Of a stretch of DNA of 64,000 nucleotides, positions 7,133 to 30,829 are shown piece after piece. The number at the start of each line of letters is the position of its first letter. The stretch's first letter is position 1. The position numbers were made by a program, and so were the translations under genes. The stretch lies in assembly GCF_056746865.1 (NCBI RefSeq), contig NZ_CM163382.1; one strand, 5' to 3'. The notes beneath the pieces were generated by a model. That model was not told the origin of the DNA. It was given only the letters and a program-made list of their open reading frames with translations, and did not search any database.

Positions 7133-7263
7133 TTATCCTGCTGTAAAAAAAACGCTATCCCGGCGCTGGGTAACATCGGGTTCATGCTAAGATAGAGCCT
7201 TGTCCCCCGCAGGATTGATATGGGGTGTTTTCGATTTCAGATTACCGATGATTCACGACGCTT

Positions 7264-7746
7264 ATGACGAAGAAAAAAGCACATAAACCTGGTTCAGCGA
7301 CCATCGCGCTTAACAAGCGCGCCCGTCACGAATACTTTATCGAAGAAGAGTTCGAAGCGGGACTTGCCCTGCAAGGCTGGGAAGTTAAATCCCTGCGCGC
7401 AGGAAAAGCCAATATCAGCGACAGCTACGTCCTTCTGCGTGACGGAGAAGCGTTCCTGTTTGGCGCAAACATCACACCAATGGCAGTGGCCTCCACGCAT
7501 GTAGTGTGCGATCCTACCCGTACCCGCAAATTACTTCTCAACCAGCGCGAACTGGACTCATTGTACGGTCGCGTCAATCGAGAAGGCTATACCGTAGTGG
7601 CGCTCTCCCTGTACTGGAAAAATGCCTGGTGCAAAGTGAAAATCGGCGTCGCCAAAGGTAAGAAACAGCACGATAAACGTTCAGACATCAAAGAACGCGA
7701 ATGGCAGGTGGATAAAGCGCGTATCATGAAAAACGCCCACCGTTAA
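7264..7746 (+). CDS. smpB: SsrA-binding protein SmpB
   Basis: 160-aa [32 protein letters not shown], immediately upstream of the tmRNA gene. Confidence 0.97.
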
Positions 7747-7960: not shown

Positions 7961-8323
7961 GGGGCTGATTCTGGATTCGACGGGATTTGCGAAACCCAAG
8001 GTGCATGCCGAGGGGCGGTTGGCCTCGTAAAAAGCCGCAAAAAATAGTCGCAAACGACGAAAACTACGCTTTAGCAGCTTAATAACCTGCTTAGAGCCCT
8101 CTCTCCCTAGCCTCCGCTCTTAGGACGGGGATCAAGAGAGGTCAAACCCAAAAGAGATCGCGTGGAAGCCCTGCCTGGGGTTGAAGCGTTAAAACTTAAT
8201 CAGGCTAGTTTGTTAGTGGCGTGTCCGTCCGCAGCTGGCAAGCGAATGTAAAGACTGACTAAGCATGTAGTACCGAGGACGTAGGAATTTCGGACGCGGG
8301 TTCAACTCCCGCCAGCTCCACCA
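7961..8323 (+). ncRNA. ssrA: tmRNA (SsrA), 363 nt
   Basis: Starts GGGGCTGATTCTGGATTCGACGGG and ends GGTTCAACTCCCGCCAGCTCCACCA. The internal tag reading frame GCAAACGACGAAAACTACGCTTTAGCAGCTTAA encodes ANDENYALAA. Confidence 0.98.
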
Positions 8324-8353
8324 AACATTCATTCATGATGCATCATGAACCTT

Positions 8354-8391
8354 AAAAAAGCCTGTAACTTCAACGAGTTGCAGGCTTTTTT
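8354..8391 (+). terminator. rho-independent terminator downstream of ssrA
   Basis: AAAAAAGCCTGTAAC-loop-GTTGCAGGCTTTTTT. The stem has one G-U pair and is followed by a T-run. Confidence 0.7.
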
Positions 8392-8443
8392 GTTGCATGT
8401 GTGGTCATGATCTCTGTATGAATCTTGACCTTTTGGCACCATG

Positions 8444-8489
8444 TTTAGCACCACGGTATCGTGGGGCTAAAAAAGCGTGGTGCTAAAAC
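8444..8489. repeat. three copies of a 12-13 bp motif immediately upstream of the int start; candidate integrase arm-type or regulatory sites
   Basis: TTTAGCACCACG (8444-8455) is the exact reverse complement of CGTGGTGCTAAA (8476-8487). A near copy CGTGGGGCTAAAA lies at 8460-8472. Confidence 0.5.
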
Positions 8490-9737
8490 ATGCCTAAGCA
8501 ACTGAAACCCTTAACAAATGTGGAGATCGCTGGCGCGAAGCCCCGTAGCACGGATTATGAGCTACGGGACGGTGAAGGCCTGTACTTGCTGGTTAAGACT
8601 TCAGGGAGGAAGGCCTGGCATTTCGAGTATTATCATCCCGTCACCAAAAAGCGCACCAAAACCAGCCTTGGCCCTTACCCGGTCGTTACACTGGCCATGG
8701 CTCGCGAAACTCGCACGAAATACAGACGACTGCTCTGGCAGGGCATCGATCCCCGTCAACACTTAGCAGGAATAGCCGAAGAAAAACGCCTCCAGAATGA
8801 ATGCACGCTGGAAAAAGTTGCGGAACAGTGGCTCAAAGAGAAGAAACGGACCAGCGACCTTAGCGAAGATCACGCCAAAGATGTCTGGCGCTCGCTGGAG
8901 ATGCACGTCTTCCCTTCTCTGGGCAGTACGCCCGTCACCGAGATCCGCCCGAAGATGCTCAAGGAACACCTCACCCCGCTGGAAGAACAGGGCATCCTCG
9001 AAACGCTGCGCCGGGTTATCTCACGGCTCAATGAAATCTTCCGCTTCGCCATCTCCGAAGAGCTTATCGAGTTTAACCCAGCAGACAACCTGGTCGCCCG
9101 CTTCAAGAAACCGAAAAAGCAGAACATGCCCGCCCTTCCCCCCAGCGAACTGGGCAGACTAATGTTGGCACTACAAAACGCCTCTATCCGCAAGGAAACA
9201 CGCTGCCTTATCGAATGGGAGCTACTGACCTGGGTTCGCCCCGGCGAAGCCGTTAGCGCCCGCTGGTGCGACATCGATATGAAAAAAGCGGAATGGCGTA
9301 TCCCTGACACCTTTATGAAGATGAACCGTTCACACACGGTGCCGCTCAGCAAACAGGCGCTGCGTGTTCTTCAGATCATGGAGCCCGTCAGCCGCCATCG
9401 TCCGTGGGTCTTCCCCAGCATCCGCAAACCGCTGGAGCACATGCACCAGCAGACCGCGAACGCCGCGCTTATCCGCATGGGGTTCGGCGGTGAGCTGGTC
9501 GCCCACGGCATGCGCAGCATCGCCAGAACGGCGGGCGCAGGTCATTTTCCCCGTGAAGTTCTGGAATCTGCACTGGCACACCAGAAAGAAGACGAGATCG
9601 AAGCGGCCTACAATCGCAGCGACTATCTGGAACAAAGGCGACCGCTCATGCAGTGGTGGGGAAACTACGTTGATGCCGCCAGACGGCAGGCATTGCTCGG
9701 TGAAGAAGAACCGCTGCGGATCGTGGAAGGAGAATAA
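8490..9737 (+). CDS. P4-type tyrosine integrase (DUF4102 N-terminal arm-binding domain)
   Basis: 415-aa ORF. The N-terminus LTNVEIAGAKPRSTDYELRDGEGLYLLVKTSGRKAWHFEYY is typical of P4-family integrases. The C-terminus carries HGMRSIART and HQKEDEIEAAYNRSDY, which hold the catalytic H-x-x-R and Tyr. It sits directly next to the tmRNA 3' end. Confidence 0.93.
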   Translation: MPKQLKPLTNVEIAGAKPRSTDYELRDGEGLYLLVKTSGRKAWHFEYYHPVTKKRTKTSLGPYPVVTLAMARETRTKYRRLLWQGIDPRQHLAGIAEEKRLQNECTLEKVAEQWLKEKKRTSDLSEDHAKDVWRSLEMHVFPSLGSTPVTEIRPKMLKEHLTPLEEQGILETLRRVISRLNEIFRFAISEELIEFNPADNLVARFKKPKKQNMPALPPSELGRLMLALQNASIRKETRCLIEWELLTWVRPGEAVSARWCDIDMKKAEWRIPDTFMKMNRSHTVPLSKQALRVLQIMEPVSRHRPWVFPSIRKPLEHMHQQTANAALIRMGFGGELVAHGMRSIARTAGAGHFPREVLESALAHQKEDEIEAAYNRSDYLEQRRPLMQWWGNYVDAARRQALLGEEEPLRIVEGE

Positions 9738-10732: not shown

Positions 10733-11905
10733 TTAGAGAACCTTAGACTGTTCTGGGAACCAGTTATTAATTATATGTCTTCGACAGACTTTAGATATTT
10801 CAAATACCTGTCGTGACACTAATGCACCATCAGGATGGCGCTGGTCAGGTATGTCATTTTCTATGTCATAAAAATTATGCGTTATTTCTGGGGGAAAGAA
10901 AACGTTTTTGTCTAAAGGCACGCTTGCATAGGGATTATAATACACATGCAAACCATCAAAATGAGTTTCCTTGTAGTCCCTTGTTCGGCACATTACAATA
11001 TCCGCGCCAACAACCTCATTGTTGTAGAATTGTCGCTTCGTAGTAACATAATGGTCAGGACCAAGTTTTCTCGTATGAGAACCTTCGTTCTTCATACCTT
11101 CATTGGCAATAAAAACATTCACATCAAGAGCTCGGAATCTCGTATATCGGACATATCGATCGACCCGACTCTGAACGATAGCCTTACCAAAAGTACCTGT
11201 CGTTGAAAACACGATAGCACTGATTTCTTTGTATGAGTCATTTGTAAAAATACCTAAAGGTATTTCAGTGTCTTCATTTTTTTTAATCGATAAAACCCTT
11301 CTTTGCCTACCATTTACTAAATCTCTCATCGTAGGTTCTTCAATGCCAAACAATACCCGGTTAATGATTGTATTATTCTGGGTTAAAGATAGATCTGAAT
11401 CAAATGGGGCCAATGCTAACACAAAAGGCTTACCGATTACATGTTCCATTGTTGAGTATGGGAACTTCTTACCATTAATTCCGGTAAAGAGATCGCGCTT
11501 ATCTTTAATTTTCCCAAGAAGTTTTAGCGTAGATTGATGCTTAAACTTAGCTTCACTGAAAATTTCACTGACTGGCGGTTTATGGGGCTTGTCAGAGACC
11601 ATAGCCTCTACGTTAAATTTATAACCTAATGGCGTGCTAACACAAAAATCAGGACTGTCTTTTGTATAGTCAACCGAATACCCCAAACGAATAAACATCT
11701 CATTTAGATATAATTCCCACATAGAAGAATTAAAGGTAGTCTGAAATTCGTTAATAAATTTAGTTTGTTCACCACTGCGTTCCAGTAATCCGCGTCCCCA
11801 TGATTGGATCACCGCCCTAACAGGAGCAAGTTTAGGATCTGTGTAGATTGTTTTAAAATTGTGATTTAGTTTATTTCTAGCTATTTTTGTTGAGAAGAGA
11901 TCCAT
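10733..11905 (-). CDS. uncharacterised protein, paralog A of the 33844-34866 product; possible PD-(D/E)xK-like core
   Basis: 390-aa ORF in a low-GC block. It shares the blocks FQTTFNSSMWELYLNEMF, SPDFCV..FNVEA, KPFVLALAPFD, IPLGIFT..EISAIVFS and DGLHVYYNPYA with the other ORF. Confidence 0.75.
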   Translation of the reverse strand: MDLFSTKIARNKLNHNFKTIYTDPKLAPVRAVIQSWGRGLLERSGEQTKFINEFQTTFNSSMWELYLNEMFIRLGYSVDYTKDSPDFCVSTPLGYKFNVEAMVSDKPHKPPVSEIFSEAKFKHQSTLKLLGKIKDKRDLFTGINGKKFPYSTMEHVIGKPFVLALAPFDSDLSLTQNNTIINRVLFGIEEPTMRDLVNGRQRRVLSIKKNEDTEIPLGIFTNDSYKEISAIVFSTTGTFGKAIVQSRVDRYVRYTRFRALDVNVFIANEGMKNEGSHTRKLGPDHYVTTKRQFYNNEVVGADIVMCRTRDYKETHFDGLHVYYNPYASVPLDKNVFFPPEITHNFYDIENDIPDQRHPDGALVSRQVFEISKVCRRHIINNWFPEQSKVL

Positions 11906-16824: not shown

Positions 16825-17811
16825 ATGGTTAAAATTCACATTTTAGATGCCGGACATGGTGATTGCTTGTTAGTAGACTGCGATGGTGTCAAATTGTTAA
16901 TTGACGCTGGCCCAAGTACATTTAGGTATAGAAAAAAAATTTCAGCCAAGTTAGCTGAACTTCTGAATGGCGAGTCTGTTGATATCGCTTTTGTAACTCA
17001 CAATGATGATGACCATATCGGTGGTTTCAAATACCTAATTGAAAATAAAATAAACATCAAGAGATTTGTATTCAATAGTTTATCTAACATTAAACATGTA
17101 ATAAAGAATTCAAGCAATAAAATATCGACCAAACAAGATATAAATCTTGATAGAATAGTGAAAGATGGAAGTTTTGTCTTTTCGACACTAACTTCAGATG
17201 ACTCTCCTATTTTAATCAGAAATATAAAAATAACACCTATTACTCCTTCAAAAAATATCCTTTTAAAATATTTAGAACAACAAGAGCGTAAAAACACAGA
17301 AATTAAAATATCATCTTCATCTGAAAAATATAGTATTAAAGAAGCACTGCAGTTGCTAAGCAATGGAAATGATATGTTTGTAAAGGATCCATCGGCAACT
17401 AATAAAACCAGTTTATCATTTATGATTGAGTATGGGAATTTTTGTGGATTATTCCTTGGTGATGCACACGAAGAAGACATCTACTCATATATGGCTAATC
17501 ATTGTGCCAATAGAAAAATATCATTTAACGTTGTTAAGTTAGCACATCATGGTAGTGAAAAAAACACGAGTTCACGGTTATTGAAGTTAATTGGTACAAC
17601 AGAATATATCATATGTGCGAATAAAACCAAGCATAATCATCCAAATAATTTAACTCTTGCAAGAATTTTAATACATGAACAAGAACCTAAAATTCATATG
17701 AGTAGCAGCAATCAGGAGATAATAAATTTACTCAATCAAATAAATTTATTAGGCTTCGGCATTACTGCAACCCATTCTGAAAATGGAGTTAATACTTTAA
17801 TCTATGAGTAG
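16825..17811 (+). CDS. metallo-beta-lactamase-fold hydrolase, ComEC/Rec2-type (candidate nuclease)
   Basis: 328 aa with HILDAGHGDCLLVDCDGVKLLIDAG, THNDDDHIGG (a variant of HxHxDH) and KLAHHGSEKNTS (the ComEC-like HHGS motif). The stop overlaps the next start (ATGAGTAG). Confidence 0.8.
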   Translation: MVKIHILDAGHGDCLLVDCDGVKLLIDAGPSTFRYRKKISAKLAELLNGESVDIAFVTHNDDDHIGGFKYLIENKINIKRFVFNSLSNIKHVIKNSSNKISTKQDINLDRIVKDGSFVFSTLTSDDSPILIRNIKITPITPSKNILLKYLEQQERKNTEIKISSSSEKYSIKEALQLLSNGNDMFVKDPSATNKTSLSFMIEYGNFCGLFLGDAHEEDIYSYMANHCANRKISFNVVKLAHHGSEKNTSSRLLKLIGTTEYIICANKTKHNHPNNLTLARILIHEQEPKIHMSSSNQEIINLLNQINLLGFGITATHSENGVNTLIYE

Positions 17812-19027
17812 AAAAAATGCTGTAAAAATAAAAGTCAATGATTCGGAATCAAGTGGCTATTTTTTCAAAGCAAGCTCCAAGGATGATTCTTTTGTAATTT
17901 CATCCAAGCACGGCCTTTGTTCTAGACAGTCAGATTGTGAAGAATTTCTTGATAATGTTCAGAATTGTTGCCGTTTATGCACTCAAGATTTAAATATTGA
18001 CAATATATCTTTTGAAATTGAAGGAAATAAGAAGCTAAAGCCAATAAGTTATTTCAGTCTTGAAAACAAAGATATTGTCATCACCAAAGTGGATGGGGTA
18101 TCTAATTATCCTTTAAGGATAGGAAAGATAGAAAAAGAAAAGTATTATACTTATGGTTACAAGAGTAAATGTGATAAGCCTGGCAGAATTTTATTAAATG
18201 AGCCAGATTTATTAGATGGGATTTGTTATTTCAATATATGTTCCGATGCAACACCTGAGTTGATTGAGAAAAGTGAAGAATATTATGGAATTTCAGGTTC
18301 ATTAGTTTTTGATTCTCCAGAAAAAGATGTTTTAACCGCACATGCAGTAATAACAACTAATGAAACCAATAATGACTTAGGTTCAGAAATATTACATGAT
18401 ATTGATTTCAAAGAAATTAATAACTTTTTCGGCTGTGAAGTATTCTTGGGTAAAAAACTCCAATTTCAACTAGATGATACTTTTAGTAAAAATTTTTCAA
18501 AGATTGGAGAAGTGCTTGTTAGCGACAAACTCCAAATTGAAATATTTATTTCATCTTATAAAGGTATACCATATTTTAATTTGACACCAATTGCTGATGC
18601 ATTAATTCAAAGTAAGTTTTATTATGTTTTTGGAAATGTTAGTAGAAGTGATCATATAAATATAATCGCTGCATCAAACATTATACTCAACAAATCTCAT
18701 TTAGAACCAGCTAATAAATTATTAACTAGCAAATTAACTGAATCGATATTATCAGCACCTCATATTTATTCCACTAGCATTGATGATAATAATTATCATC
18801 ATATTCATTTTAAACAAATGACTTCTGGTGATATTGAGCTCATAATATCATGTTATGGTGGAGGAGATGATCTTCCTAAAGATATAAATGGCACTTTAAC
18901 TGAGTTGTTACACAATATAAATACTTATAACTTAAATAAAAATTCAATAATTGAGAGGTCTTTTCTTAATCAAAAATTTACAGATGCACAATGCGAAATT
19001 TTATATGAGATTTTTTTGAGCGATTAA
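17804..19027 (+). CDS. fusion protein: N-terminal trypsin-like serine protease domain plus an unrecognised C-terminal domain
   Basis: 407 aa. Candidate catalytic triad in SSKHGL, KDIVITKV and YGISGSLVFD. Cys-rich insert CSRQSDCEEFLDNVQNCCRLC. The ORF ends just after a T7 run, and one extra T would fuse it to the next ORF. Confidence 0.7.
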   Translation: MSRKNAVKIKVNDSESSGYFFKASSKDDSFVISSKHGLCSRQSDCEEFLDNVQNCCRLCTQDLNIDNISFEIEGNKKLKPISYFSLENKDIVITKVDGVSNYPLRIGKIEKEKYYTYGYKSKCDKPGRILLNEPDLLDGICYFNICSDATPELIEKSEEYYGISGSLVFDSPEKDVLTAHAVITTNETNNDLGSEILHDIDFKEINNFFGCEVFLGKKLQFQLDDTFSKNFSKIGEVLVSDKLQIEIFISSYKGIPYFNLTPIADALIQSKFYYVFGNVSRSDHINIIAASNIILNKSHLEPANKLLTSKLTESILSAPHIYSTSIDDNNYHHIHFKQMTSGDIELIISCYGGGDDLPKDINGTLTELLHNINTYNLNKNSIIERSFLNQKFTDAQCEILYEIFLSD

Positions 19028-19053
19028 CTGATTCAATCGACAGAATTTCATTA

Positions 19054-19269
19054 TTGCATGTAATTCCTTTGGACCATTATTTAATAAAAGATAAATCAGA
19101 AATTAAAAATGAAATTATTACCATTGTTGAGAAAGCGTGTCAAGAATTAGACAGCAACATTTTAGATTATCTTGAGCATGGAATATCTATAAATCTATTA
19201 ATATTTCCAACTAATAATAAAGATGAATTATCAGGGTTAATGCAAAGGTTGATAAATAATTATGAATGA
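19054..19269 (+). CDS. 71-aa ORF with a TTG start, probably the detached C-terminus of the preceding gene
   Basis: Its frame is open from 19009. An 8-T instead of 7-T run at 19011-19017 would join it to 17804-19027. Its stop overlaps the helicase start (ATGAATGA). Confidence 0.45.
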   Translation: MHVIPLDHYLIKDKSEIKNEIITIVEKACQELDSNILDYLEHGISINLLIFPTNNKDELSGLMQRLINNYE

Positions 19270-20464
19270 TGCTATTAATTATATCTGCAATAGAATAAAA
19301 AATAGTGACGGATTTAGTTACTGTTATGAAAAACTATTGATATCTATTTCAAAGAATCTATTCAATCCAACTAGCAGCAACCCCATTACTCAGCGTGAAT
19401 ATCAACAATTGCTAAAATTCAGCGATTTTTTATCTAATTCCGAAAAAGAAGAAGATCGAAACCTAGCGTTAAAAATAATATCTGCAATATATGATCTTTA
19501 TAAAGAAGATCATAGTTGCCAATTACTGACAAAATCCATCCTTAGCAAACTTGGACTTTTTGCCGCTGAGGAAGTATTTACTGATAGTGATATAAAACTA
19601 CCATTATCCTATGAAATTTCTAGCAAATACAGAAAAATAAAAAATCGTATAAATGGTTCTGAGTACATATTCACTAATCGACAATGTGATGTGTACAGTG
19701 AGATCATGCAGAATGATTATTTTAGTTTTTCTGGCCCGACATCCCTCGGCAAATCATTCTTGATTAAACATGCTGCCGTTGATCTTATTGAAAATAATAA
19801 ACTAATTATTTTCATCCTTCCAACAAAAGCTTTATTAGAAGAATATCTAATTGACTTAAAATCTATACTCAATGAAAAAGGCGTGAAAGATATAAATGTA
19901 AGTAAATCCGTATCACAAGTTGACAAAGAAAGTAAAAATATATTGGTGTTTACACAAGAAAGATATAACTCATTTTTATATGAAAAGTCTTATGATAATA
20001 TGGATGTTGACTTTTTATTTATTGATGAAGCTCATAAAGTACTTGACAAAAAGAATAATAGAGCTATAACCCTATATAAAGTAATAAATAACTCCATAGA
20101 AAAATATGGTAAATTAAAAGTCATTTTTTCCTGCCCAGTAATTTCCAATCCTGATGTGTTTTTCAAAACATTTAATATACCGAATAGCAAGAAAACAAGA
20201 AGTTTATGTATTAAAGAATCTCCGGTAAATCAAGATTTGTACTTTGCAAATTATCAAGATAATAATTTTGTCTATTTTGATTCTATTTTAAATAAAAAAA
20301 TTAATTTCAATGTAAATAATGCTTATCAAAATGACTTTGAAATAATCAGAGGATTAGCACAACAATCCAAGTCAAACCTTATCTACGTATCAAGTAAAAC
20401 AGAATGTATAAGGAAATGTAACGAATTTCTAGAGTATTTAATTCGGGAAAAAAAGTATCGATAA
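19262..20464 (+). CDS. SF2 DExH helicase, N-terminal part (RecA1 domain); gene split by a frameshift
   Basis: Walker A FSGPTSLGKSF, motif II FIDEAHKV, motif III-like VIFSCP. It ends 7 nt after an A7 run at 20448-20454. Confidence 0.8.
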   Translation: MNDAINYICNRIKNSDGFSYCYEKLLISISKNLFNPTSSNPITQREYQQLLKFSDFLSNSEKEEDRNLALKIISAIYDLYKEDHSCQLLTKSILSKLGLFAAEEVFTDSDIKLPLSYEISSKYRKIKNRINGSEYIFTNRQCDVYSEIMQNDYFSFSGPTSLGKSFLIKHAAVDLIENNKLIIFILPTKALLEEYLIDLKSILNEKGVKDINVSKSVSQVDKESKNILVFTQERYNSFLYEKSYDNMDVDFLFIDEAHKVLDKKNNRAITLYKVINNSIEKYGKLKVIFSCPVISNPDVFFKTFNIPNSKKTRSLCIKESPVNQDLYFANYQDNNFVYFDSILNKKINFNVNNAYQNDFEIIRGLAQQSKSNLIYVSSKTECIRKCNEFLEYLIREKKYR

Positions 20465-20502
20465 CAACAGACGATGAACTTATTTCCGAGTCAAAAATAA
20501 TC

Positions 20503-21786
20503 ATGGAGTATATTCATAAAGATTTTAACTTAGCTCATGTATTAAAATATGGTATAGCATTTCACCATGGTTCACTACCTCTATTTATAAGAAAAAGAAT
20601 AGAGGACTTATATTCCAAAAAGAAAATAAATTTTATCTTTTGCACATCAACTTTACTTGAAGGGGTAAACTTACCCACAAAGAATGTTTTTATTTATCCA
20701 TTCCCTAAAAAGACTGTTAACGATGAAAAAAAATGCCGATTAGATTTTTGGAATCTGGCGGGGCGAGCTGGAAGATACAGAAGTGAATTGACTGGTAACA
20801 TAGTATGCCTGAATACCGCTGATAATAACTGGAGCAATGCAGATGCTAAAATTAGCCTAGGTAATAATGTTATTATAGAGGATGAAATAAACTCAACATT
20901 ACTACGCCATCAAAAAATATTAAATTATTTTGATGGTAAAGTTAAATCTCCAACTAATGACATTATTCAACTCAGCTCACTTATTCTATCAGAAATATTA
21001 ACTTATTTAGATAAAGGTTATATAGGGCGAATTTTAAATACCTTTAATGAAAAGATTCGGTTTATGCTTATTGATTCAGGAAAAAAACATCTTGATCGTA
21101 ATAGAATTATTGAAATAGATAAAGTGACCTTTTCAGAAAATCATATATTCTCAACATCCATACACGCTAAAGCCCAACTCAATGCTAAAAATAAAGAAAA
21201 ATTATTGCGTTCTTATAGCAGAGAGGATGTTTTCAATTATTTGGAAACAATAAATGAAATATATGGCCTGCGTAACACCCCTGATTCATTAAACCAACTG
21301 TGCATTGTGACTTATTCGTGGCTCATGGGTAATACGCTGAATTTATTAATATCAAACGCTATTAAATATAGCAATTCAGTTAGAGATCCTATTAGCTATA
21401 GATGGGTTAAATTTGATAAAACCAATCCTGATCATATAAACGCAAAAATAATGGAGGCAATACAATGCATTGAATCTGAAGTTACTTTTAAACTTGAAAC
21501 ATGTATTGCTCATTTTTATCAGCTATGTCAATCAATTCACGGCGATGAAAATGCAGGCATTAATCTTTCACCTTATTTAGAATATGGAACATTAGATACT
21601 AACATCATAGAACTTCAAGAGTTTGGTTTCTCTCGTTTAGCCGCAATTGAAATTATAGCAAAGCACAAAGAGTGTGTTACATTCAAAACAAATGAGACAT
21701 CATTGCAAATAAACACTCAGAAATTAAGAGCTAAGATTGAAAAGCACAGTGTAATTGATAGAGAACTATCATGGTTGAATTTATAA
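20503..21786 (+). CDS. SF2 DExH helicase, C-terminal part (RecA2 domain plus C-terminal extension)
   Basis: GIAFHHGSLPLFIRKRIEDLY, FCTSTLLEGVNLPTKNVFI and NLAGRAGRY are Ski2/Hel308-like motifs IV-VI. The frame is open upstream back to 20422 and joins 19262-20464 if the A-run had 8 A. Confidence 0.8.
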   Translation: MEYIHKDFNLAHVLKYGIAFHHGSLPLFIRKRIEDLYSKKKINFIFCTSTLLEGVNLPTKNVFIYPFPKKTVNDEKKCRLDFWNLAGRAGRYRSELTGNIVCLNTADNNWSNADAKISLGNNVIIEDEINSTLLRHQKILNYFDGKVKSPTNDIIQLSSLILSEILTYLDKGYIGRILNTFNEKIRFMLIDSGKKHLDRNRIIEIDKVTFSENHIFSTSIHAKAQLNAKNKEKLLRSYSREDVFNYLETINEIYGLRNTPDSLNQLCIVTYSWLMGNTLNLLISNAIKYSNSVRDPISYRWVKFDKTNPDHINAKIMEAIQCIESEVTFKLETCIAHFYQLCQSIHGDENAGINLSPYLEYGTLDTNIIELQEFGFSRLAAIEIIAKHKECVTFKTNETSLQINTQKLRAKIEKHSVIDRELSWLNL

Positions 21787-21940: not shown

Positions 21941-22420
21941 TTAATCATCATCTAAATTATAATCATGGTAAATAGCCAGTTGCTTGTTGATTGGTAATTT
22001 ATTGATTTTTAAGGCCAACTCGATAGAGGATGCCGATAACATCTTTCTTTCTTCATCTGAAGTTCGTTCAACACCTTCAACTTGGTAGAGCAAAGCATTT
22101 AGCATCTTTTTTATAAATATACCTCGCTGTTCATCAGACAAATGTTCAGCCAAAGTCATTAGTAGACCTAATTCCCTTTTTACTCGTTCGCTATCTTGAG
22201 ATTGACCTGTTTCCTCACCTAGTAACCAAGCCGGACTAACTCCAGTAGCATGAGCGATCTTCTGAAGTTGCTCAATTCCATTCGGAAGCGAATCTCCGGC
22301 AACATATCCACGGATCGTAGAGTACGGGATATCACATTTTTGTGCCAGATCACGCATGGAATCGCCTGTCATAGCGAGAAGTTTCTCTAATCTGGCACTA
22401 AATTCACTCTTAATCATCAT
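21941..22420 (-). CDS. XRE-family helix-turn-helix transcriptional regulator
   Basis: 159 aa. The N-terminus LEKLLAMTGDSMRDLAQKCDIPYSTIRGYVAGDSLPNGIEQLQKIAHATGVSPAWLLGE is a classic Cro/CI-type HTH. Low GC, convergent with the helicase gene. Confidence 0.85.
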   Translation of the reverse strand: MMIKSEFSARLEKLLAMTGDSMRDLAQKCDIPYSTIRGYVAGDSLPNGIEQLQKIAHATGVSPAWLLGEETGQSQDSERVKRELGLLMTLAEHLSDEQRGIFIKKMLNALLYQVEGVERTSDEERKMLSASSIELALKINKLPINKQLAIYHDYNLDDD

Positions 22421-22780: not shown

Positions 22781-23302
22781 ATGTGGACAGTCAGCCTCGC
22801 TGAGGCGTTTATTCATGTATTCCAGGTCGCAGGCAAAATCTTCCTCGACATGATGACCGGGCTTATCCCGATGCTCATCTGCCTGCTGCTGGCCATCAAC
22901 TTCCTGATGAAGCTGGTTGGTACCGTGCGGATGGAGAAAGTTGCCGCCCTGCTCGGCCGCTCGCGCATTCTCACCTACGGCGTGCTGCCGGTGCTCGGCT
23001 GGTTCTTTATGAGCAGCCCCGGCGCGCTCACTTTAGGCAAACTCCTGCCCGAAAAGAGCAAGCCCGGCTATGAGGATGCGCTCGGCACCCCCGCCCATCC
23101 CCTCACCAGCCTGTTTCCCCACGTAGTGCCATCAGAGCTGTTTGTCTGGCTCGGCGTGGCTGCCGGGGTTAAGGCGCTCGGCCTGCCCGTCACCTCGCTG
23201 GCGCTGCGCTATATCGCCGCCGCCATGCTGATTGGTTTAATCCGCGGGATTATCACCGAGTACCTGTTCCTGCGGCTCAGCAAGCGGGGGAATGCGCCAT
23301 GA
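22781..23302 (+). CDS. PTS glucitol/sorbitol-family EIIC component (SrlA-like)
   Basis: 173 aa, collinear with my recollection of SrlA (..FLDMMTGLIPMLICLL.., LGKLLPEKSKPGY, LFPHVVPSELFVWLGVAAG). Confidence 0.85.
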   Translation: MWTVSLAEAFIHVFQVAGKIFLDMMTGLIPMLICLLLAINFLMKLVGTVRMEKVAALLGRSRILTYGVLPVLGWFFMSSPGALTLGKLLPEKSKPGYEDALGTPAHPLTSLFPHVVPSELFVWLGVAAGVKALGLPVTSLALRYIAAAMLIGLIRGIITEYLFLRLSKRGNAP

Positions 23303-23364
23303 TGATTTACTGAGCACGTATCGTCGCCATCGGGCTGTTTGTCGCCGATGGTCTCACCGACAAA

Positions 23365-23673
23365 ATGCTTATCACCTTCGACAGCAACGGGCCGAAGGAC
23401 TGTCTCGATTACTCGCTATCGCTGGAGCCGTCGTTCCGGGAAGAGAGCCTGATGATACTCCCCGGCGACCGCCTGCTGCTGGCGGGCCACGATTTTCTGG
23501 TGACTGCCGTCGGCAAAGGGGCACAGCAGGCGCTGTTTGAACTCGGCCACCTGACGCTGGTGTTCAATGGTGACCTGAATCCCTGCCATGTCGGCGCGGT
23601 TCATCTCTCCGGCCCGGTGCCGAACCTGCGCGACCTCCACGGCAATCTGGTGATTGAGGAGGGGCGGCCATGA
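23365..23673 (+). CDS. PTS glucitol-family EIIA component (SrlB-like), N-terminally truncated by an in-frame TGA
   Basis: MLITF...FLVTAVGKGAQQALFELGHLTLVFNG...VHLSGPVP parallels SrlB. The homologous frame actually starts at ATG 23299 (MMIY) but has TGA at 23311-23313. Confidence 0.7.
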   Translation: MLITFDSNGPKDCLDYSLSLEPSFREESLMILPGDRLLLAGHDFLVTAVGKGAQQALFELGHLTLVFNGDLNPCHVGAVHLSGPVPNLRDLHGNLVIEEGRP

Positions 23674-24650
23674 ACACGGTGCTCATTCCCCCCGGTCCCG
23701 GCGGCTATGGTAAGGGGCTTTGGCTACCCACAGGGAGCGGCAAAAAGGTACTGTCGCTGACCGGGCGCGAGATTCATCCGGTGGCGATAGAAATCGGCGC
23801 ACTTACCGAATCGGAAGTGGTGAATGGCTTTGCCGATATCCCGCCGGATAACGACATCCTGTGCGTGGTGATTAACTGTGCCGGGTCCCTGCGCTGCGGC
23901 CTGTATCCGCAGAAGGGTATCCCGACCATCAACGTGCTGCCTACCTGGCGGGCCGGACCGCTGGCGCACTTTATTAGCGAAGAGAACTACGTCTCCGGTG
24001 TGACGATAGAGCAACTGGTTCTGGTGGATACCGCCGAAGCGCCGGACTGTCAGCCTGAGTCAGTTCCAGCTCCGGAGCCAGTCATTACCACCGCTCCTCC
24101 ACCTCCGCGCGGTGCGGAGAAACTGGTGCGCATGGTCGAGCAGACCGGCACCGCCGTCGGCCACGTTATCGCCCTGCTGTTCGCCGCCAGCCGTGAGGCG
24201 GTGGACGTGTCGCTGCGCAACGTTATCCCGTTTATGGCCTTTGTCTCGCTGCTGATTGCCCTGGTGCAGGAGACCGCGCTCGGCAGCCTGATTGCCCACG
24301 CCCTGACGCCGCTGGCGAACTCACTGTGGGGACTGGTGCTGCTGTCGCTCATCCGCGGCATTCCGTTTCTCTCCCCGGTGCTAGGGCCGGGTGCGGCTAT
24401 CTCGCAGGTGATTGGCGTGATGATTGGCACACAGATTGGCGCAGGGGCGATATCTCCGGCCTTCGCCCTGCCCGCCCTGTTTGCGATCAATGTGCAGGTC
24501 GGCTGCGACTTCGTGCCTGTTGGCCTTTCGATGCAGGAGGCAAAGCCGGAGACCATCGCAAAAGGTGTACCCGCCTTTCTGCTGTCGAGACAACTGACCG
24601 GACCGCTTGCGGTAATAGTCGGCTGGCTGTTTTCCCTGGGCTTATTCTGA
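23670..24650 (+). CDS. PTS glucitol-family EIIBC component (SrlE-like)
   Basis: 326 aa with VVINCAGSLRCGLYPQKGIPTINV, ILPFMAFVSLLIAL and ALPALFAINVQVGCDFVPVGLSMQEA, matching the SrlE pattern. Confidence 0.88.
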   Translation: MNTVLIPPGPGGYGKGLWLPTGSGKKVLSLTGREIHPVAIEIGALTESEVVNGFADIPPDNDILCVVINCAGSLRCGLYPQKGIPTINVLPTWRAGPLAHFISEENYVSGVTIEQLVLVDTAEAPDCQPESVPAPEPVITTAPPPPRGAEKLVRMVEQTGTAVGHVIALLFAASREAVDVSLRNVIPFMAFVSLLIALVQETALGSLIAHALTPLANSLWGLVLLSLIRGIPFLSPVLGPGAAISQVIGVMIGTQIGAGAISPAFALPALFAINVQVGCDFVPVGLSMQEAKPETIAKGVPAFLLSRQLTGPLAVIVGWLFSLGLF

Positions 24651-24660
24651 GGACATAACG

Positions 24661-25674
24661 ATGAACAAAATCAGAGCCGCCGTGGTCGGCGCAGGTATCT
24701 ACGGCAAACACCATATGAATGCGTACCTCCATAACCCGGACACCGTGCTGGTCGCCATCTGCGACACCGATACAGAACGCTGCGACGACCTCGCCATGAC
24801 CTGTGGCGTGATGGGTTATACCCGGCTGGATGTCCTGTTACAGGAGGAAGCCATCGACGTGGTCTCGGTGGCGACACCTGACCCGTACCACACTGAATCC
24901 ATCCTCACCGCCCTGCGCCACGGCAAACATGTGCTGGCGGAGAAACCGCTCGCCACCTCAGTACGCGAGTGCGAGCTTATCGTGGAGATGGCGCAACAGC
25001 GCGGCCTGCTGGTCGGCGTCGATTTCCACAAACGCTGGGACCCGGCGGTGATGCGCATCAAAGCCGAACTGGAGAAACCGGAGACCGGGCGGATCCTGCG
25101 CGGCCATATCAGTATGGACGACGTGATTACCGTGCCGACGGACTGGCTGGACTGGGCGGGCGCAAGCTCCCCTGTGTGGTTTCTCGGCTCACACTGCTTT
25201 GACCTGGTGCGCCACCTTTCCGGTCAGGAAGTGGTGTCGGTGTATGCCGCCGGGCAGAAACGGCTGATGACCGAATGCGGCCTCGACACCTTCGACAGCG
25301 TGCAGAGCCTTCTGACGATGGCCGACGGCAGTTCGTGGGTGGTGGAAAACTCGTGGGTGCTGCCGGAGGGCTTCCCGAAGGACAACGACGGGCGCATTGA
25401 TATTCTCTGTGAGGCAACGTATATCCGCAGCACCTCGCAGCATCGCGGGCTGGAAATCACCACGCCAGGCATGACGCTCACGCCCAACAGCTACTTCATC
25501 AACTACCGCAACGGTGTCGCCAGCGGTTTCGGTATCGATCCGATAAACGACTTTGTTCGCGCGGTCAGGAACCGTTCGCCGTACCCGGTGACGGCAGAGG
25601 ACGGGCTGGCGGTCAGCCGGATTTGCGAGGCGGTGCACCGCAGTCTGGAGAGCGGGAAACCTGAAGATGTTTAA
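24661..25674 (+). CDS. Gfo/Idh/MocA-family NAD(P)-dependent oxidoreductase
   Basis: 337 aa. N-terminal Rossmann IRAAVVGAGIYGKHH and the EKP motif HVLAEKPLATS. Confidence 0.85.
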   Translation: MNKIRAAVVGAGIYGKHHMNAYLHNPDTVLVAICDTDTERCDDLAMTCGVMGYTRLDVLLQEEAIDVVSVATPDPYHTESILTALRHGKHVLAEKPLATSVRECELIVEMAQQRGLLVGVDFHKRWDPAVMRIKAELEKPETGRILRGHISMDDVITVPTDWLDWAGASSPVWFLGSHCFDLVRHLSGQEVVSVYAAGQKRLMTECGLDTFDSVQSLLTMADGSSWVVENSWVLPEGFPKDNDGRIDILCEATYIRSTSQHRGLEITTPGMTLTPNSYFINYRNGVASGFGIDPINDFVRAVRNRSPYPVTAEDGLAVSRICEAVHRSLESGKPEDV

Positions 25675-26018
25675 ACAAACGGCGCAGGGTAGCTCCCTGT
25701 GCCAGTTCCATATGATTTTGCTAATTCTACTCACTGGTATATTCACTCGTTAGGCTTTGGCCCGCAGATATATTAATGTTTTCCATCCTGCCGCAACAAA
25801 ACCCCACACACGATTGTATGTTTTTTAGTCATCAAGGTGAATAGAGGTATTTTATGGCTATGACCTTTTTCACCTCCCTGCCAATAGTATCATGCTAAAC
25901 CTCTCATCTATGTTTATTGCGCCATAATAGTCAACAAGTATTTCAAAAAAGTCCCAAGCAAATTATAATGCTGGAGTTTCATAATGTCCCTTTAAAAACC
26001 ATTTTAAGAAGAGCTATT

Positions 26019-27170
26019 ATGTCCCTCCCTACAAATTTTAATGATATTCTTCGTCTTTTTGAAAAAGATTACGATACAGCCAAAGAAGATAATGCCTTAA
26101 GTGCACGCGGACAATTTCTGCAACTTTACCCCCTTAATCGCCTAAAAAAAATGACGCTTGATGACTATGTCATCGGCAAAGGCACGGCCTCATTTTGTGC
26201 TTGTGTTGAAGTAAAAACCAGAACATGGGCAAATATGCAAGGTGCGACGGCGCTCAAATTTGGTATTTATTATGGAAAATCAAAATCAGATCCAGCCGTC
26301 CGCTATCGTTTTACTCAGAAATTTGGCGATGATGATAGTACTAATAAAGAAGTTTTCGCTAATGTTAAAGACGCTTTACTAGACCTAATACAGTCAGGGA
26401 AAGAATTAGATTTTAGAGCGATTGACGAGAACCCCCTATCCCAAATGTTTAAGGCTAAAATATTGAGCCTTTACTTTCCAGAACACTTTATAAACATTTG
26501 CAGCAAAGATCATCTTAAAGAAATTGCTATGAAAATGGGTATAAAAGAGCAACAGTTTATTAGTAAATATCAACATTTGTTATTCAAGAAAAAACTAGAG
26601 CATAAAATCACCCGAAACTGGAGCAATCCAAAATATATGTCCTTCCTTTATGCCCAGTTCATACGTAAGGATCTTAGCAGCGCTCCTGCTGTGATAGTTA
26701 AAAAACCACAAAAAAGAAACCATCCCGAAGTCAATTTCGAAGAAATAACGGACAATCGTGATTTAATAGGCAAAAAAAGCGAAGAATATGCATTAAACTG
26801 GGAAAAAAACCGCCTAATCGGTCTCGGCTATTCAAAACTAGCTGAGGAAATAGATGATCGCCGTAATCGTCCAACTTATGGTTACGACTTTCTTTCTTTT
26901 AATGCCCCAGGTGATGAGCGATACATCGAAGTAAAATCAATTGGCCGAGATGGAAAAGAGGGAGCATTCCGTTTTTTCCTCTCAGGAAATGAACTCACCG
27001 TTTCTAATTTAAGTAACCACCGTAAAAACTATTATTTTTATCTTGTACAGTATGGGAAAGATGGAGAGCCATGCAATCTATATGTAAAACATGCTCAAGA
27101 TCTTTACACTAATAGTGAAATGACCCCTTGTGCTTACGTTGTTAGGTTCGATCTGGAAGAACCTGCTTAA
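26019..27170 (+). CDS. fusion protein with a C-terminal DUF3883-type restriction-endonuclease-fold domain
   Basis: The C-terminus EEYALNWEKNRLIGLGY...YGYDFLSFNAPGDERYIEVKSIGRDGKEGAFRFFLSGNELTVS...YYFYLV fits the DUF3883 GYD..S/..IEVK signature. ATG 26019 has only a purine-rich AAGAAGAG stretch upstream and no clear Shine-Dalgarno. The ORF track starts at 25917. Confidence 0.7.
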   Translation: MSLPTNFNDILRLFEKDYDTAKEDNALSARGQFLQLYPLNRLKKMTLDDYVIGKGTASFCACVEVKTRTWANMQGATALKFGIYYGKSKSDPAVRYRFTQKFGDDDSTNKEVFANVKDALLDLIQSGKELDFRAIDENPLSQMFKAKILSLYFPEHFINICSKDHLKEIAMKMGIKEQQFISKYQHLLFKKKLEHKITRNWSNPKYMSFLYAQFIRKDLSSAPAVIVKKPQKRNHPEVNFEEITDNRDLIGKKSEEYALNWEKNRLIGLGYSKLAEEIDDRRNRPTYGYDFLSFNAPGDERYIEVKSIGRDGKEGAFRFFLSGNELTVSNLSNHRKNYYFYLVQYGKDGEPCNLYVKHAQDLYTNSEMTPCAYVVRFDLEEPA

Positions 27171-27241
27171 TAGTTTCGACAACCTCCGACTCATAACTTT
27201 AAAAGTGTGAAATCAGGCGCAGAGTCACCTGAGCCTTCATC

Positions 27242-27877
27242 TCAGTGATACTGCAACAACACCTGCGAAATCTTCCTCGCTTCATCAGCAGGATCCGCTG
27301 CATGCGTGATCGCTGATCCCACAATCACCACATCCGGGCCTAACAGCGCATAGTCTTTCACCGTCTGGCTACTGATGCCGCCTGCTACGGCAATCCGTGC
27401 TTTCCGGCGCGCCTTCAGCATTGTTATCAAATCATCAATCGGCTTGCGCCCTGCCGCCTGCTGGTCGGTGCCTGTGTGTACCGCCAGCATATCCGCGCCC
27501 GCCTCTTCCAGGAGGCGGACCCGCGCAGGGAGATCGTCGACGCAGATCATATCCACCACCACCTGCTTTCCAGCCTCCTTCGCCGCACAGATGCATGACT
27601 GGATCGTCAGCAGGTCGGTCACACCTAACACCGTGACATAGTCTGCTCCGGCGTCGAAAAGCAGCTGCGATTCAAAATGGCCGCCATCCATAATTTTCGC
27701 ATCCACCAGTACTTCCTTATGCGGGTATTTCTCTTTAATGACTTTAATCGCGTTCACGCCTTCCCGAATAAGAAAAGGTGTACCCACTTCAATAATATCA
27801 ACGTCGTCAACCACCTTATCGATAAATACCAGCGCTTCAGGCAGGGTTAACTCGTCCAGGGCAAGCTGTAATTTCAT
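27242..27877 (-). CDS. 3-hexulose-6-phosphate synthase / 3-keto-L-gulonate-6-P decarboxylase family (OMP decarboxylase fold)
   Basis: 211 aa starting MKLQLALDELTLPEALVFIDKV..DIIEVGTPFL, with VDAKIMDGG and AVAGGIS, the typical HPS/UlaD/SgbH pattern. Confidence 0.85.
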   Translation of the reverse strand: MKLQLALDELTLPEALVFIDKVVDDVDIIEVGTPFLIREGVNAIKVIKEKYPHKEVLVDAKIMDGGHFESQLLFDAGADYVTVLGVTDLLTIQSCICAAKEAGKQVVVDMICVDDLPARVRLLEEAGADMLAVHTGTDQQAAGRKPIDDLITMLKARRKARIAVAGGISSQTVKDYALLGPDVVIVGSAITHAADPADEARKISQVLLQYH

Positions 27878-27900
27878 GTTGGTTTCCTTGTGTCGAATGA

Positions 27901-28467
27901 CTATTCGAGGTTGGCGTGTAGCGCAAAACCTTTGGTTAAGCGATATCCCGTCGACTGCGCCAGATTCACAATCATGGCATCGCCCAGCACCATGACCGCC
28001 TCTTCAAACAGGCTGCCGCCGGGCAGAATGCCTTTCACGTTATCGAGTCCATCCGGCAGTTTGTCGGTATAGGCCGGGATCCTGACCACTACCTCCGCCA
28101 GATTCCCCAGCGTGGACTCGGGGAAAATGGTCAGCAAGGCCACAGTGCCACCCAGTTGCTTCGCTTTCGTTGCCACATTCACCAGCGAAGCCGTTTCACC
28201 CGATGCGCTGGCCAGTAACAGCAGGTCGCCATTTTTCAGCGCAGGCGTGACCACATCGCCGACCACATGCACCTTCAGGCCGATATGCATCAGGCGCATC
28301 GCAAAAGCTTTCAGCATTAATAGCGAACGCCCTGCGCCAAAAACAAACACCGTGTTCGCTTCAGCGATGGCCTGCTCCAGACGTGCCAGCGCAGCGCCAT
28401 CAATCCGCGACATCGCCTGATGCAGGTCAGTACAGGCGACACCTGCAACAGATTGCGTTTCCATCAT
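27901..28467 (-). CDS. 6-phospho-3-hexuloisomerase (SIS domain)
   Basis: 188 aa with VFVFGAGRSLLMLKAFAMRLMHIG and LLLLASASGET, SIS/PHI-type motifs. Confidence 0.8.
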   Translation of the reverse strand: MMETQSVAGVACTDLHQAMSRIDGAALARLEQAIAEANTVFVFGAGRSLLMLKAFAMRLMHIGLKVHVVGDVVTPALKNGDLLLLASASGETASLVNVATKAKQLGGTVALLTIFPESTLGNLAEVVVRIPAYTDKLPDGLDNVKGILPGGSLFEEAVMVLGDAMIVNLAQSTGYRLTKGFALHANLE

Positions 28468-29306
28468 GCGTCCTCCTGACAGAGCGGGAATAAATCATCC
28501 TCATACTGGAGCATCCCCATGATTTCCCGGACATAGTTATCGACATGCCCCAGAAAGTGAAAACGTTCCGGTGCGGCGCGATAGCGTTGATAAAGCGGCG
28601 TATCGAAGGTGATGCCAAGATGCGGGTTCCCTTTGACGGTGGCGAATTTGATGCGCGGAATATGCGGGTAGTAATGATTCTTGCGCACGCAGAGCTGCCC
28701 GTTCTCTTCCACGATGTAGCAGGCCATACCGTGATAAAACTGCACCGTGTCGTAGTGAACCGCGCAGGGTTTATAGGCCAGATTGCTGAACACCAGCGGC
28801 CCGTCGCCAATATTGATGGAGCAGTGGCCGTAATTCGGCGGCACGATAATGCTTTCCCCCTCCTTCACCACCGCCACGATAAGATCGTCCACCAGCAGAT
28901 CTTTTGGCGCGACTGCAAAATCCGGCGACTTTTGCAGGATATATGCCGCAGTCCCCTTAATCACTTCATATAATTCCGGATGGGTGTTGCGCCGCGTGTC
29001 GTTATAGCCGTGATAATGACCGCTGGTTTTCTTGCGCTCCCTACCAATCGTTCCCGACATGATGATGGTGATGTCGTACTGATACTGGTCGGCAGCAAGC
29101 CGTTCCTGATCCTCCGCAAAACTGAGCCCGCGATAAACATCGTAAGCCGGTTCATCACGCTGCGCTTCGGTGAACTCCGGTAAGACCACCGCCATCTGCC
29201 CGGCGCTTTTGCGGCCAAAGCCGAGATAGTTCAGCGGGGGTTTCAGCACCATCACGCCGTCGTCATCGAGATACAGCGGTAAGCCGCTGTGGTGTAGCTG
29301 TTTCAT
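28464..29306 (-). CDS. cupin-type glucose-6-phosphate isomerase family protein
   Basis: 280 aa with TSGHYHGY, HPELYEVIKGTAAYILQ and IIVPPNYGHCSINIG, cupin PGI-like metal-binding motifs. Confidence 0.7.
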   Translation of the reverse strand: MKQLHHSGLPLYLDDDGVMVLKPPLNYLGFGRKSAGQMAVVLPEFTEAQRDEPAYDVYRGLSFAEDQERLAADQYQYDITIIMSGTIGRERKKTSGHYHGYNDTRRNTHPELYEVIKGTAAYILQKSPDFAVAPKDLLVDDLIVAVVKEGESIIVPPNYGHCSINIGDGPLVFSNLAYKPCAVHYDTVQFYHGMACYIVEENGQLCVRKNHYYPHIPRIKFATVKGNPHLGITFDTPLYQRYRAAPERFHFLGHVDNYVREIMGMLQYEDDLFPLCQEDA

Positions 29307-30829
29307 TTTGCCTCCTGTGTATACGCGTTAGCTGCGCGGATCGCCTCTTTCAGCCGATCGGATTTCATGCCAAAGACGCTTTGAATGTTGTTCCCGACCT
29401 CGACGACACCCGCCGCACCAAGCTGTTTCAGCAGCGCTTTGTCCACCAGCGACTTATCCGTCACGTCAATGCGCAGACGCGACATGCAGGCTTCGATGCG
29501 GGTCATATTCCCCAGCCCGCCATAGGCCAGAATGATGCCGCTCACCAGGTCGTTCTGTTCGTTTTCCTGCGCCACAGTGCTTTCTTCGACTTCACACCCC
29601 GGCGTCAGCAAATTCCAGCGGCGGATGGCAAAGGTAAACAGGGCGTAGTACACCGCTCCCATCACCAGCCCGACCGGGAACACCATGTACCAGTGAGGCG
29701 CGCGCGGCAGGACGCCAAAGAACAAATAGTCGATAAGCCCGCCGGAGAAAGAGAGCCCGATGTGCACGCTGAACCACTCCATCAGCAGGAACACCAGCCC
29801 CGCCAGGACGGCGTGAATGCCATATAGCACGGGCGCAACAAACAGGAAGGAGAACTCAATCGGCTCGGTGATGCCGCAGACGATGGAGGTGATCGCGCCA
29901 GAGAGCATAATGCCCTTCACCCGCGCTTTGTTTTCCGGGCTGGCGCAGCGGTAGATCGCCACCGCAATCGCCGGAATGCAGAACATCTTGATCGGCGTCA
30001 GCCCGGCCATAAAGGTTCCGGCGGTAATCGGCACCTGATCTTTCAACTGGGCAAAGAAGATAAGCTGGTCGCCATGCACCACCTGCCCGGCTTTGTTCAC
30101 GTACTCGCCAAACTGCAGCCAGAACGTCGGCCACCAGACATGGTTAAGACCAAACGGAATCAGCAGCCGCTCGACAAAACCGAACAGGAAGGCGGACACG
30201 CCCGGCCCCTGCACCGTCATAGTATTCGACAGGCCATTAATCAGATGCTGAACCGGCGGCCAGACCACCGTCATCACCAGCCCGACAAACAGCGCGGCGA
30301 AGGAGGTCACTATCGGCACAAATCGCTTGCCGGAGAAGAACTCCAGCCATGAAGGAAGCTGGATGCGGTAATAGCGTTTATACAGCCAGGCGGCGATAAT
30401 CCCGATAATGATGCCGCCAAACACGCCGGTCTGGAGCGAAGGGATGCCCAGCACCATCGTGTAGTCACGTACCTGCGCCACCGACTCGGGCGTGATCCCC
30501 AGAAACTGGCCGATGGTGACGTTCATAATCAGAAAACCGGCGATCGCCGACAACCCGGCAATCCCCTGATCGTCACTCAGTCCTACCGCCACGCCGACCG
30601 CAAACAGCAGCGGCAGGTTAGCGAAAATCGCACTGCCCGCTTCAGCCATCAGCTTCAGCACGTGAACCAGCCAGTCAGCGCCGAGAAACGGCAGGCTGGC
30701 GACAATATTGGGATCCTGAAAGCTGACGCCGAAGGCCAGCAAAATACCGGCGGCAGGCAGCATGGCAATGGGGATCATTAACGATCGCCCGATGCTTTGT
30801 AACATTTGCAGAAGGTTGAATCTTTTCAT
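29303..30829 (-). CDS. PTS glucose-family EIICB transporter
   Basis: 508 aa. A polytopic EIIC domain (PtsG/MalX/NagE-like) is followed by EIIB ILAYGGLGNMTRIEACMSRLRIDV containing the active-site Cys. Confidence 0.88.
   Translation of the reverse strand: MKRFNLLQMLQSIGRSLMIPIAMLPAAGILLAFGVSFQDPNIVASLPFLGADWLVHVLKLMAEAGSAIFANLPLLFAVGVAVGLSDDQGIAGLSAIAGFLIMNVTIGQFLGITPESVAQVRDYTMVLGIPSLQTGVFGGIIIGIIAAWLYKRYYRIQLPSWLEFFSGKRFVPIVTSFAALFVGLVMTVVWPPVQHLINGLSNTMTVQGPGVSAFLFGFVERLLIPFGLNHVWWPTFWLQFGEYVNKAGQVVHGDQLIFFAQLKDQVPITAGTFMAGLTPIKMFCIPAIAVAIYRCASPENKARVKGIMLSGAITSIVCGITEPIEFSFLFVAPVLYGIHAVLAGLVFLLMEWFSVHIGLSFSGGLIDYLFFGVLPRAPHWYMVFPVGLVMGAVYYALFTFAIRRWNLLTPGCEVEESTVAQENEQNDLVSGIILAYGGLGNMTRIEACMSRLRIDVTDKSLVDKALLKQLGAAGVVEVGNNIQSVFGMKSDRLKEAIRAANAYTQEAK

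Follow-up and report, generated by a model that had tools for sequence, protein, structure and literature searches.

The PD-T4-1 gene and its coding frame

The window analysed here, a stretch of 64,000 nucleotides of Escherichia coli chromosome (contig NZ_CM163382.1, assembly GCF_056746865.1), contains a gene at positions 26019-27170 on the plus strand, which encodes 383 amino acids plus the stop codon and lies within a genomic island inserted beside ssrA, the tmRNA gene. This gene is PD-T4-1, an already published single-protein anti-phage system of E. coli. It shows a guanine-plus-cytosine (GC) fraction of 0.374 and is located between two high-GC sugar modules, as described in the original prediction, which was made from the letters of the window alone: an srl-like phosphotransferase system (PTS)/Gfo-Idh-MocA module upstream (0.612) and an hxlA-hxlB-pgi-ptsG module downstream (0.561). 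The PADLOC model PD-T4-1 (PDLC04021) matches residues 2-382 on profile positions 5-382 of 383 (E 3e-204, 676 bits), and this full-length assignment to a known system removes the novelty proposed for the gene. PD-T4-1 is one of the 21 systems obtained by functional selection by Vassallo et al. (2022, Nat Microbiol; PMC9519451), who list it as validated under the name 'DUF3883' (Table S1) and give as its source strain UMB0934, protein RRM93940.1, with an open reading frame (ORF) of 1,203 nt (Table S2). The cloned PD-T4-1 region overshoots this ORF by 34 nt at one end and 193 nt at the other (PMC9519451), and the primer PD-T4-1-F is found in the window at 27184-27204 on the minus strand with no mismatches. 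From the primer match and the published coordinates, the published ORF therefore corresponds to 25968-27170 and the cloned fragment to 25775-27204, and the locus in the window is collinear to the base with the fragment validated against T4. Gene, species and fragment coordinates are the same in both cases, and the sole difference is the annotated start, which gives 400 amino acids in the published protein and 383 here. The same gene is present at 99% identity or more in 131 of 5,426 complete E. coli genomes, always adjoining hxlA, and the 90%-identity cluster of the protein contains 1,788 members from E. coli and Salmonella.

The open frame extends from 25917 to 27170 on the plus strand, is TTG-initiated and shows two in-frame ATG codons, at 25968 and 26019. 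The RefSeq coding sequence WP_000889014.1 starts at 25968, and so does the 400-amino-acid ORF of Vassallo et al. (2022; Table S2). The 17 codons upstream of 26019 (25968-26018, plus strand) belong to this RefSeq/GenBank 400-amino-acid annotation and are probably untranslated: the 560 homologues found, mostly of 375-383 amino acids, have no counterpart of this extension, and all the sequences of an alignment of 55 (52-68% identity) start at the residue encoded by 26019, where the original prediction had also placed the start. The best promoter-like site, obtained by a consensus scan only, is a candidate sigma-70 promoter with 10 of 12 matches (TTCAAA-16 nt-TATAAT; 25942-25969, plus strand), whose -10 element overlies the ATG at 25968; it is contained in the cloned fragment 25775-27204, which gave defence from its native promoter. 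Because the homologues start at 26019 and the candidate -10 element covers the ATG at 25968, the 383-amino-acid form, to whose extent the PADLOC model also points, is likely to be the true product, judging from sequence, and not the form starting at 25968 in RefSeq. Public annotation of the protein is inconsistent: versions of 400 and 383 amino acids coexist, and some partial Salmonella entries of the 90% cluster are labelled 'hexulose-6-phosphate synthase', a name apparently taken from the adjacent hxlA. NCBIfam shows no match to the protein, Rfam shows none in the region 25400-27500, and nothing remarkable was seen in the small upstream ORFs. PHROGs gave no meaningful match to either half of the protein, and the gene is therefore not typically phage-borne.

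Nuclease and N-terminal domains of the protein

The C-terminal part, residues 240-383 (26736-27167, plus strand), is a PD-(D/E)XK nuclease domain according to Pfam, AlphaFold2 (AF2) and Foldseek. The Pfam family NOV_C (PF13020, formerly DUF3883) matches residues 255-348 with an E value of 1.3e-14 and 54.5 bits, against a cut-off of 22.1, and the catalytic motif (26886-26936, plus strand) comprises D290 (26886-26888), E304 (26928-26930) and K306 (26934-26936). These three residues are invariant in the alignment of 55 sequences, in agreement with the DUF3883 domain and the D and E-x-K candidates named in the original prediction, both of whose quoted peptide strings are present in the translation. 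E304 is at least 90% conserved in a wider sequence set, and E255, E262 and R265, located on the helix ahead of the catalytic motif, are likewise invariant in the 55 sequences. In the full-length AF2 model, with a predicted local distance difference test (pLDDT) score of 81.9, this domain shows helices at 240-268 and 323-329 and strands at 291-296, 299-311, 316-320 and 338-345. The order is canonical, a helix, three strands, a helix and a strand, with D290 opening strand 1 and E304-x-K306 on strand 2.

When the full-length model was compared with the PDB by Foldseek, the matches were weak throughout and all fell on the nuclease domain: the N-terminal domain of Eco15I/NhoI, Hjc, I-Ssp6803I, EcoRV and SPARDA. 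The best of them, the archaeal Holliday-junction resolvase Hjc, I-Ssp6803I and the N-terminal nuclease domain of NhoI/Eco15I (E 0.013 or worse, 10-18% identity), have the minimal PD-(D/E)XK fold in common with the C-terminal domain and do not contain the N-terminal domain of PD-T4-1. The HHpred table of Vassallo et al. (2022; Table S3) gives a similar picture, with DUF3883 and weak PDDEXK_5 and Hjc matches at the C-terminus and the remaining protein without assignment. Within PADLOC, TmtA and PDC-S36 share a NOV_C-type nuclease and match residues 228-380 and 232-341, respectively, but they are much larger or differently built and show no match to the N-terminal domain. No NTPase family is found in the protein by Pfam or NCBIfam, and the translation has no GxxxxGK[ST] motif. 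The P-loop/helicase NTPase component that defines the nuclease-NTPase grouping of Ragucci et al. (2025; bioRxiv 10.1101/2025.07.10.664194) is not found in PD-T4-1, which is also not among the P-loop-containing systems listed in that preprint. Two candidate sites were considered and discarded: a P-loop at GIYYGKS (residues 82-88), the closest approach to that motif, which has the wrong spacing, is not conserved and lies on a beta-strand in the model of the N-terminal domain alone, and a zinc site formed by C60, C161, H165 and C371, whose C161 gives way to Phe or Tyr in the majority of the wider family's members.

The N-terminal domain, residues 1-225 (26019-26693, plus strand), belongs to no Pfam family, and no Pfam or NCBIfam model matches residues 1-250, so that the original prediction was right to leave this part of the protein unplaced. 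An AF2 model of the domain alone, built from a more diverse alignment, reaches a pLDDT of 95.4 and a predicted template modelling score (pTM) of 0.91 and consists mainly of helices, with residues 83-98 forming a beta-hairpin; residues 54-56 and 65-76 show low pLDDT in the full-length model and high pLDDT in the domain-only model. The most conserved stretch, one of those quoted in the original prediction, comprises residues 50-86 (YVIGKGTASFCACVEVKTRTWANMQGATALKFGIYYG; 26166-26276, plus strand), and family-wide conservation is shown by F33, Y50, G53, F59, C60, E64, G75, K80, F81, G82 and Y84, together with K147, L149, Y152 and P154. Foldseek gave nothing significant for the domain (best E 0.33), and when the family alignment was run as a profile against the PDB, chalcone synthase was the sole match, at chance level (E 1.3).

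Residues 1-230, compared by phmmer with 1.84 billion cluster representatives, gave 1,426 matches at E<=0.001, 572 of them at E<=1e-10; these family clusters are defined at 50% identity, and the best 150 of the 1,426 matches were inspected. Partner domains were scanned in the 102 listed matches of at least 330 amino acids, which contain NOV_C in 70 cases, HNH in 19 and HNH_2 in seven, and the only Pfam families found in them at E<=0.001 are NOV_C, HNH, HNH_2, DUF3427 and WG_beta_rep. No ATPase partner is present in these long relatives, and a resemblance of the N-terminal domain to those fronting McrB-type ATPases, as had been suggested, is not borne out. The HNH proteins P0199, P0264, P0207 and P0255 show a homologous N-terminal domain (33-40% identity) followed by a C-terminal nuclease, as in PD-T4-1, and differ in the nuclease fold, which is HNH or HNH_2 instead of PD-(D/E)XK. 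The combination of this N-terminal domain and an HNH nuclease was seen in P0199, P0264, P0245, P0207, P0212 and P0255, some of which have long N-terminal extensions, and no experimental work on such HNH-fused relatives was found in the literature. P0207 shows a DUF3427 domain ahead of the N-terminal domain (41 bits, cut-off 27.7) and P0167 a sub-threshold EVE domain (E 0.001); in the N-terminal extensions of the long relatives only a sub-threshold EVE match and an unrelated short SeqA_N match appear. When 103 family members were compared with Pfam at E<=10, no family fell on the N-terminal domain among the 25 of 74 weak families listed.

Since the N-terminal domain pairs with two unrelated nuclease folds, it is a portable module, and such portability is what would be expected of a targeting or sensing module and not of a scaffold specific to one enzyme; the domain would thus act in nucleic-acid recognition or in regulation. 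Weak HhH-GPD glycosylase matches to it recur, with no significant match to a solved structure. If they reflected an active HhH-GPD-type DNA glycosylase/lyase, the N-terminal domain would remove a base from phage DNA and leave an abasic site for the nuclease to cut, an arrangement that is very unlikely: a comparison of the family with E. coli EndoIII by hhalign was negative, and the catalytic Asp that follows the helix-hairpin-helix is not conserved, positions 163 and 164 being acidic in about 38% and about 50% of the 103 members, respectively. A broader proposal, tentative and on balance doubtful, is that the domain is a Pfam-less nucleic-acid sensor, possibly a catalytically degenerate HhH-GPD offshoot, which has been shuffled between NOV_C and HNH nucleases, at times with a DUF3427 or EVE-like reader ahead of it, confers specificity for single-stranded DNA (ssDNA) or for particular phages, and defines a family of single-protein sensor-nuclease defences. 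If this were true, about 1,400 clusters of sensor-nuclease enzymes would exist, of which PD-T4-1 alone has been tested experimentally.

The cargo slot and the ssrA island

The gene occupies a variable cargo slot (25666-27238) located between the stop codon of the Gfo/Idh/MocA gene (25674) and that of hxlA (27242). In a blastn comparison with the sister island of E. coli E04 (L002, NZ_CM143912), the flanks show identities of 88% and 95%. Their homology ends at 25665 and is restored at 27239, where the two flanking genes end, which fits the single-gene cassette originally described. E04 carries other genes between the matching flanks, so PD-T4-1 occupies a defined slot. No direct repeats flanking the cassette were found in a repeat search, which gave only two inverted pairs at chance level. 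The slot of E04 contains two unrelated hypothetical genes, at 7111-7743 (plus strand) and 8023-8823 (minus strand), encoding 210 and 266 amino acids, without PADLOC matches; one of them has a weak nucleotidyltransferase match (E 0.0036). Because of the slot that they occupy, they are candidate defence genes.

A role of PD-T4-1 as a non-defence regulator or enzyme of the flanking sugar operons could be imagined from its position between two sugar-utilisation modules and from the 'hexulose-6-phosphate synthase' name of some entries of its cluster. The probability of such a role is negligible: the names are apparently mis-annotations by proximity, the GC fraction of 0.37 departs from the approximately 0.6 of the flanks, the slot holds other genes in the sister island, homologues are found in unrelated neighbourhoods, and the nuclease domain together with the published anti-phage phenotype refutes it. 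The neighbours of the homologues of Serratia and Pectobacterium are unrelated to those in E. coli, and as the neighbours differ among the three, there is no conserved partner gene; the neighbourhood comparison suggested by the original prediction gives this answer.

In the annotated sister genome (L001), the island shows the following order: ssrA, an integrase, further genes (among them those for an AlpA-family regulator and a DUF927 protein), a low-GC block, the srl-like PTS/Gfo module, the PD-T4-1 gene and the hxlAB-pgi-ptsG module. In the window, PD-T7-5, a second system of Vassallo et al. (2022), is located at 10736-11905 on the minus strand (390-amino-acid ORF, PADLOC E 2.4e-137, no Pfam match). 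The block at 16825-21786 on the plus strand has a GC fraction of 0.29 and contains four ORFs: the first (16825-17808) encodes a metallo-beta-lactamase-fold protein with LmuA/RTasMBL/Avs1a-like PADLOC matches, the second, of 407 amino acids, has no match, and the last two (19262-20461 and 20503-21783) encode a HamB helicase in two parts, which cover profile positions 4-400 and 413-842 of 845. PADLOC recognised no HamA in this block, which may be a Hachiman variant with another effector and a split helicase, or may contain a broken gene. A CI/Cro-type helix-turn-helix protein is encoded at 21944-22420 on the minus strand, in the gap that separates the HamB block from the sugar module; it has a weak CapH-like PADLOC match (E 2.6e-5) and may regulate the adjacent defence genes. 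The original prediction that the gene stands alone holds for its place between the sugar modules but not for the island, which carries PD-T7-5 and the HamB-type locus 4-15 kb upstream. The sugar modules (22781-25674 and 27242-30829) show GC fractions of 0.61 and 0.56, compared with 0.47 for the whole window, and both look imported too; the island as a whole combines at least three compositional classes in a mosaic. An allele of 63% identity (P0036; L003, 7001-11199), in an E. coli metagenome contig, lies directly after an integrase in an island beside smpB, in the ssrA region, with PRTase-CE and reverse-transcriptase genes downstream. This island resembles a version of the same integration hotspot that is rich in defence genes.

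Activity, proposed mechanism and significance

For this E. coli protein, defence against T4 has been validated, and the systems selected on T4 usually protect against T2 and T6 too (Vassallo et al., 2022; PMC9519451). Ragucci et al. (2025; bioRxiv 10.1101/2025.07.10.664194) found that the E. coli protein (EcPD-T4-1) defends against T4 and Bas21 and that mass photometry shows it to be a dimer, whose core is predicted to consist of the PD-(D/E)XK domains. The purified protein, for whose activity about 50 nM or less suffices, cleaves ssDNA exclusively and introduces nicks into plasmid. Double-stranded DNA (dsDNA), T4 DNA included, is left uncut, and the nuclease mutant of the protein shows no cleavage of M13 ssDNA. 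These authors suggest that long ssDNA in viral replication intermediates is recognised. The proposal of a one-protein defence nuclease is thereby upheld: the protein is validated against T4, the nuclease mutant is inactive in vitro, and no partner gene is conserved.

The gene is very probably PD-T4-1 acting from a cargo slot of the ssrA island as a dimeric nuclease on single-stranded or nicked phage DNA, with the N-terminal domain as selector or gate. In this mechanism the C-terminal NOV_C/DUF3883 domain is a metal-dependent PD-(D/E)XK nuclease with D290, E304 and K306 as catalytic residues, and the nuclease domains form the core of the homodimer, as predicted in the literature. The N-terminal domain, of about 225 amino acids, may select the substrate or gate the nuclease. 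T-even phages make abundant single-stranded and nicked intermediates. The dimer would most likely attack such DNA arising from phage replication and recombination and spare the intact host duplex; both this target in vivo and the role of the N-terminal domain are put forward as probable. Several points weigh against this interpretation. Identity with RRM93940.1 is deduced from coordinates, primer, profile and population identity. The ssDNA specificity comes from one preprint, with naked virion DNA as substrate. The proposed mechanism also leaves unaccounted for the stronger effect on T4 and Bas21 than on other phages of the panel. The N-terminal domain, for which nucleic-acid binding is presumed, shows no significant structural or profile match.

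Type IV modification-dependent restriction, in which the N-terminal domain would read a modified base, for example glucosyl-hydroxymethylcytosine, and direct the DUF3883 nuclease to phage DNA, is improbable. The phage spectrum speaks for it, PD-T4-1 having been selected on T4, a phage with hypermodified DNA. Bas21, in turn, is a member of a group of the BASEL collection that has 7-deazaguanine-modified DNA. DUF3883 is also the catalytic domain of the modification-dependent YenY4I and of the McaZI-like DUF3427-DUF3883 fusions (Lutz et al. 2019, NAR), enzymes which share with PD-T4-1 a C-terminal DUF3883/NOV_C PD-(D/E)XK domain and an ATPase-free, single-polypeptide organisation. Their front domains, however, are PUA-superfamily and DUF3427 readers, whereas PD-T4-1 has a different domain without Pfam match. 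YenY4I cuts modified dsDNA weakly and does not restrict wild-type T4 (Lutz et al. 2019, NAR); PD-T4-1, in contrast, cuts ssDNA and restricts T4. The reader domains of the relatives P0207 (DUF3427) and P0167 (EVE, below threshold) would favour the same idea, but they come on top of the N-terminal domain, which suggests that the latter does a different job. The N-terminal domain itself shows no PUA, EVE, SRA or DUF3427 signal, either in its own Pfam search (E<=1) or among the families listed for the 103 relatives (E<=10). The biochemistry also argues against it: T4 genomic DNA and other dsDNA remain uncut, while the unmodified ssDNA of M13 and of a second ssDNA phage is cut. The modification-dependent nuclease of the original prediction is not sustained by these data.

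Comparably unlikely is a triggered abortive-infection nuclease, in which the N-terminal domain would restrain the nuclease until a phage signal arrives, host and phage nucleic acid would then be degraded and the cell would die. Abortive infection is shown by 12 of the 21 systems of Vassallo et al. (2022), but seven of their 11 DNA-binding or DNA-cleaving systems act by direct immunity. The nicking of plasmid in vitro speaks for it, as do the linker 217-239 and the N-terminal loops 54-76, which show low confidence in the full-length model and not in the isolated domain; the purified protein, however, needs no phage factor to cut ssDNA, even when its concentration is low, and no special toxicity is reported for EcPD-T4-1, with expression tuned to minimal toxicity (Ragucci et al., 2025). 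A dimeric nuclease directed at single-stranded or nicked phage DNA is the preferred reading.

The discovery and validation of PD-T4-1 date from 2022 and a partial biochemical characterisation from 2025, and no new system is added here. This analysis adds the identity of the gene in the window, the start codon at 26019, the conservation of the catalytic triad, the exact bounds of an exchangeable slot in an ssrA island with other defence genes, the lack of a conserved partner gene, and a modular N-terminal domain. As the family of this domain is large and pairs with two unrelated nuclease folds, the domain, still without explanation, is the natural target for understanding how PD-T4-1 picks its substrate.
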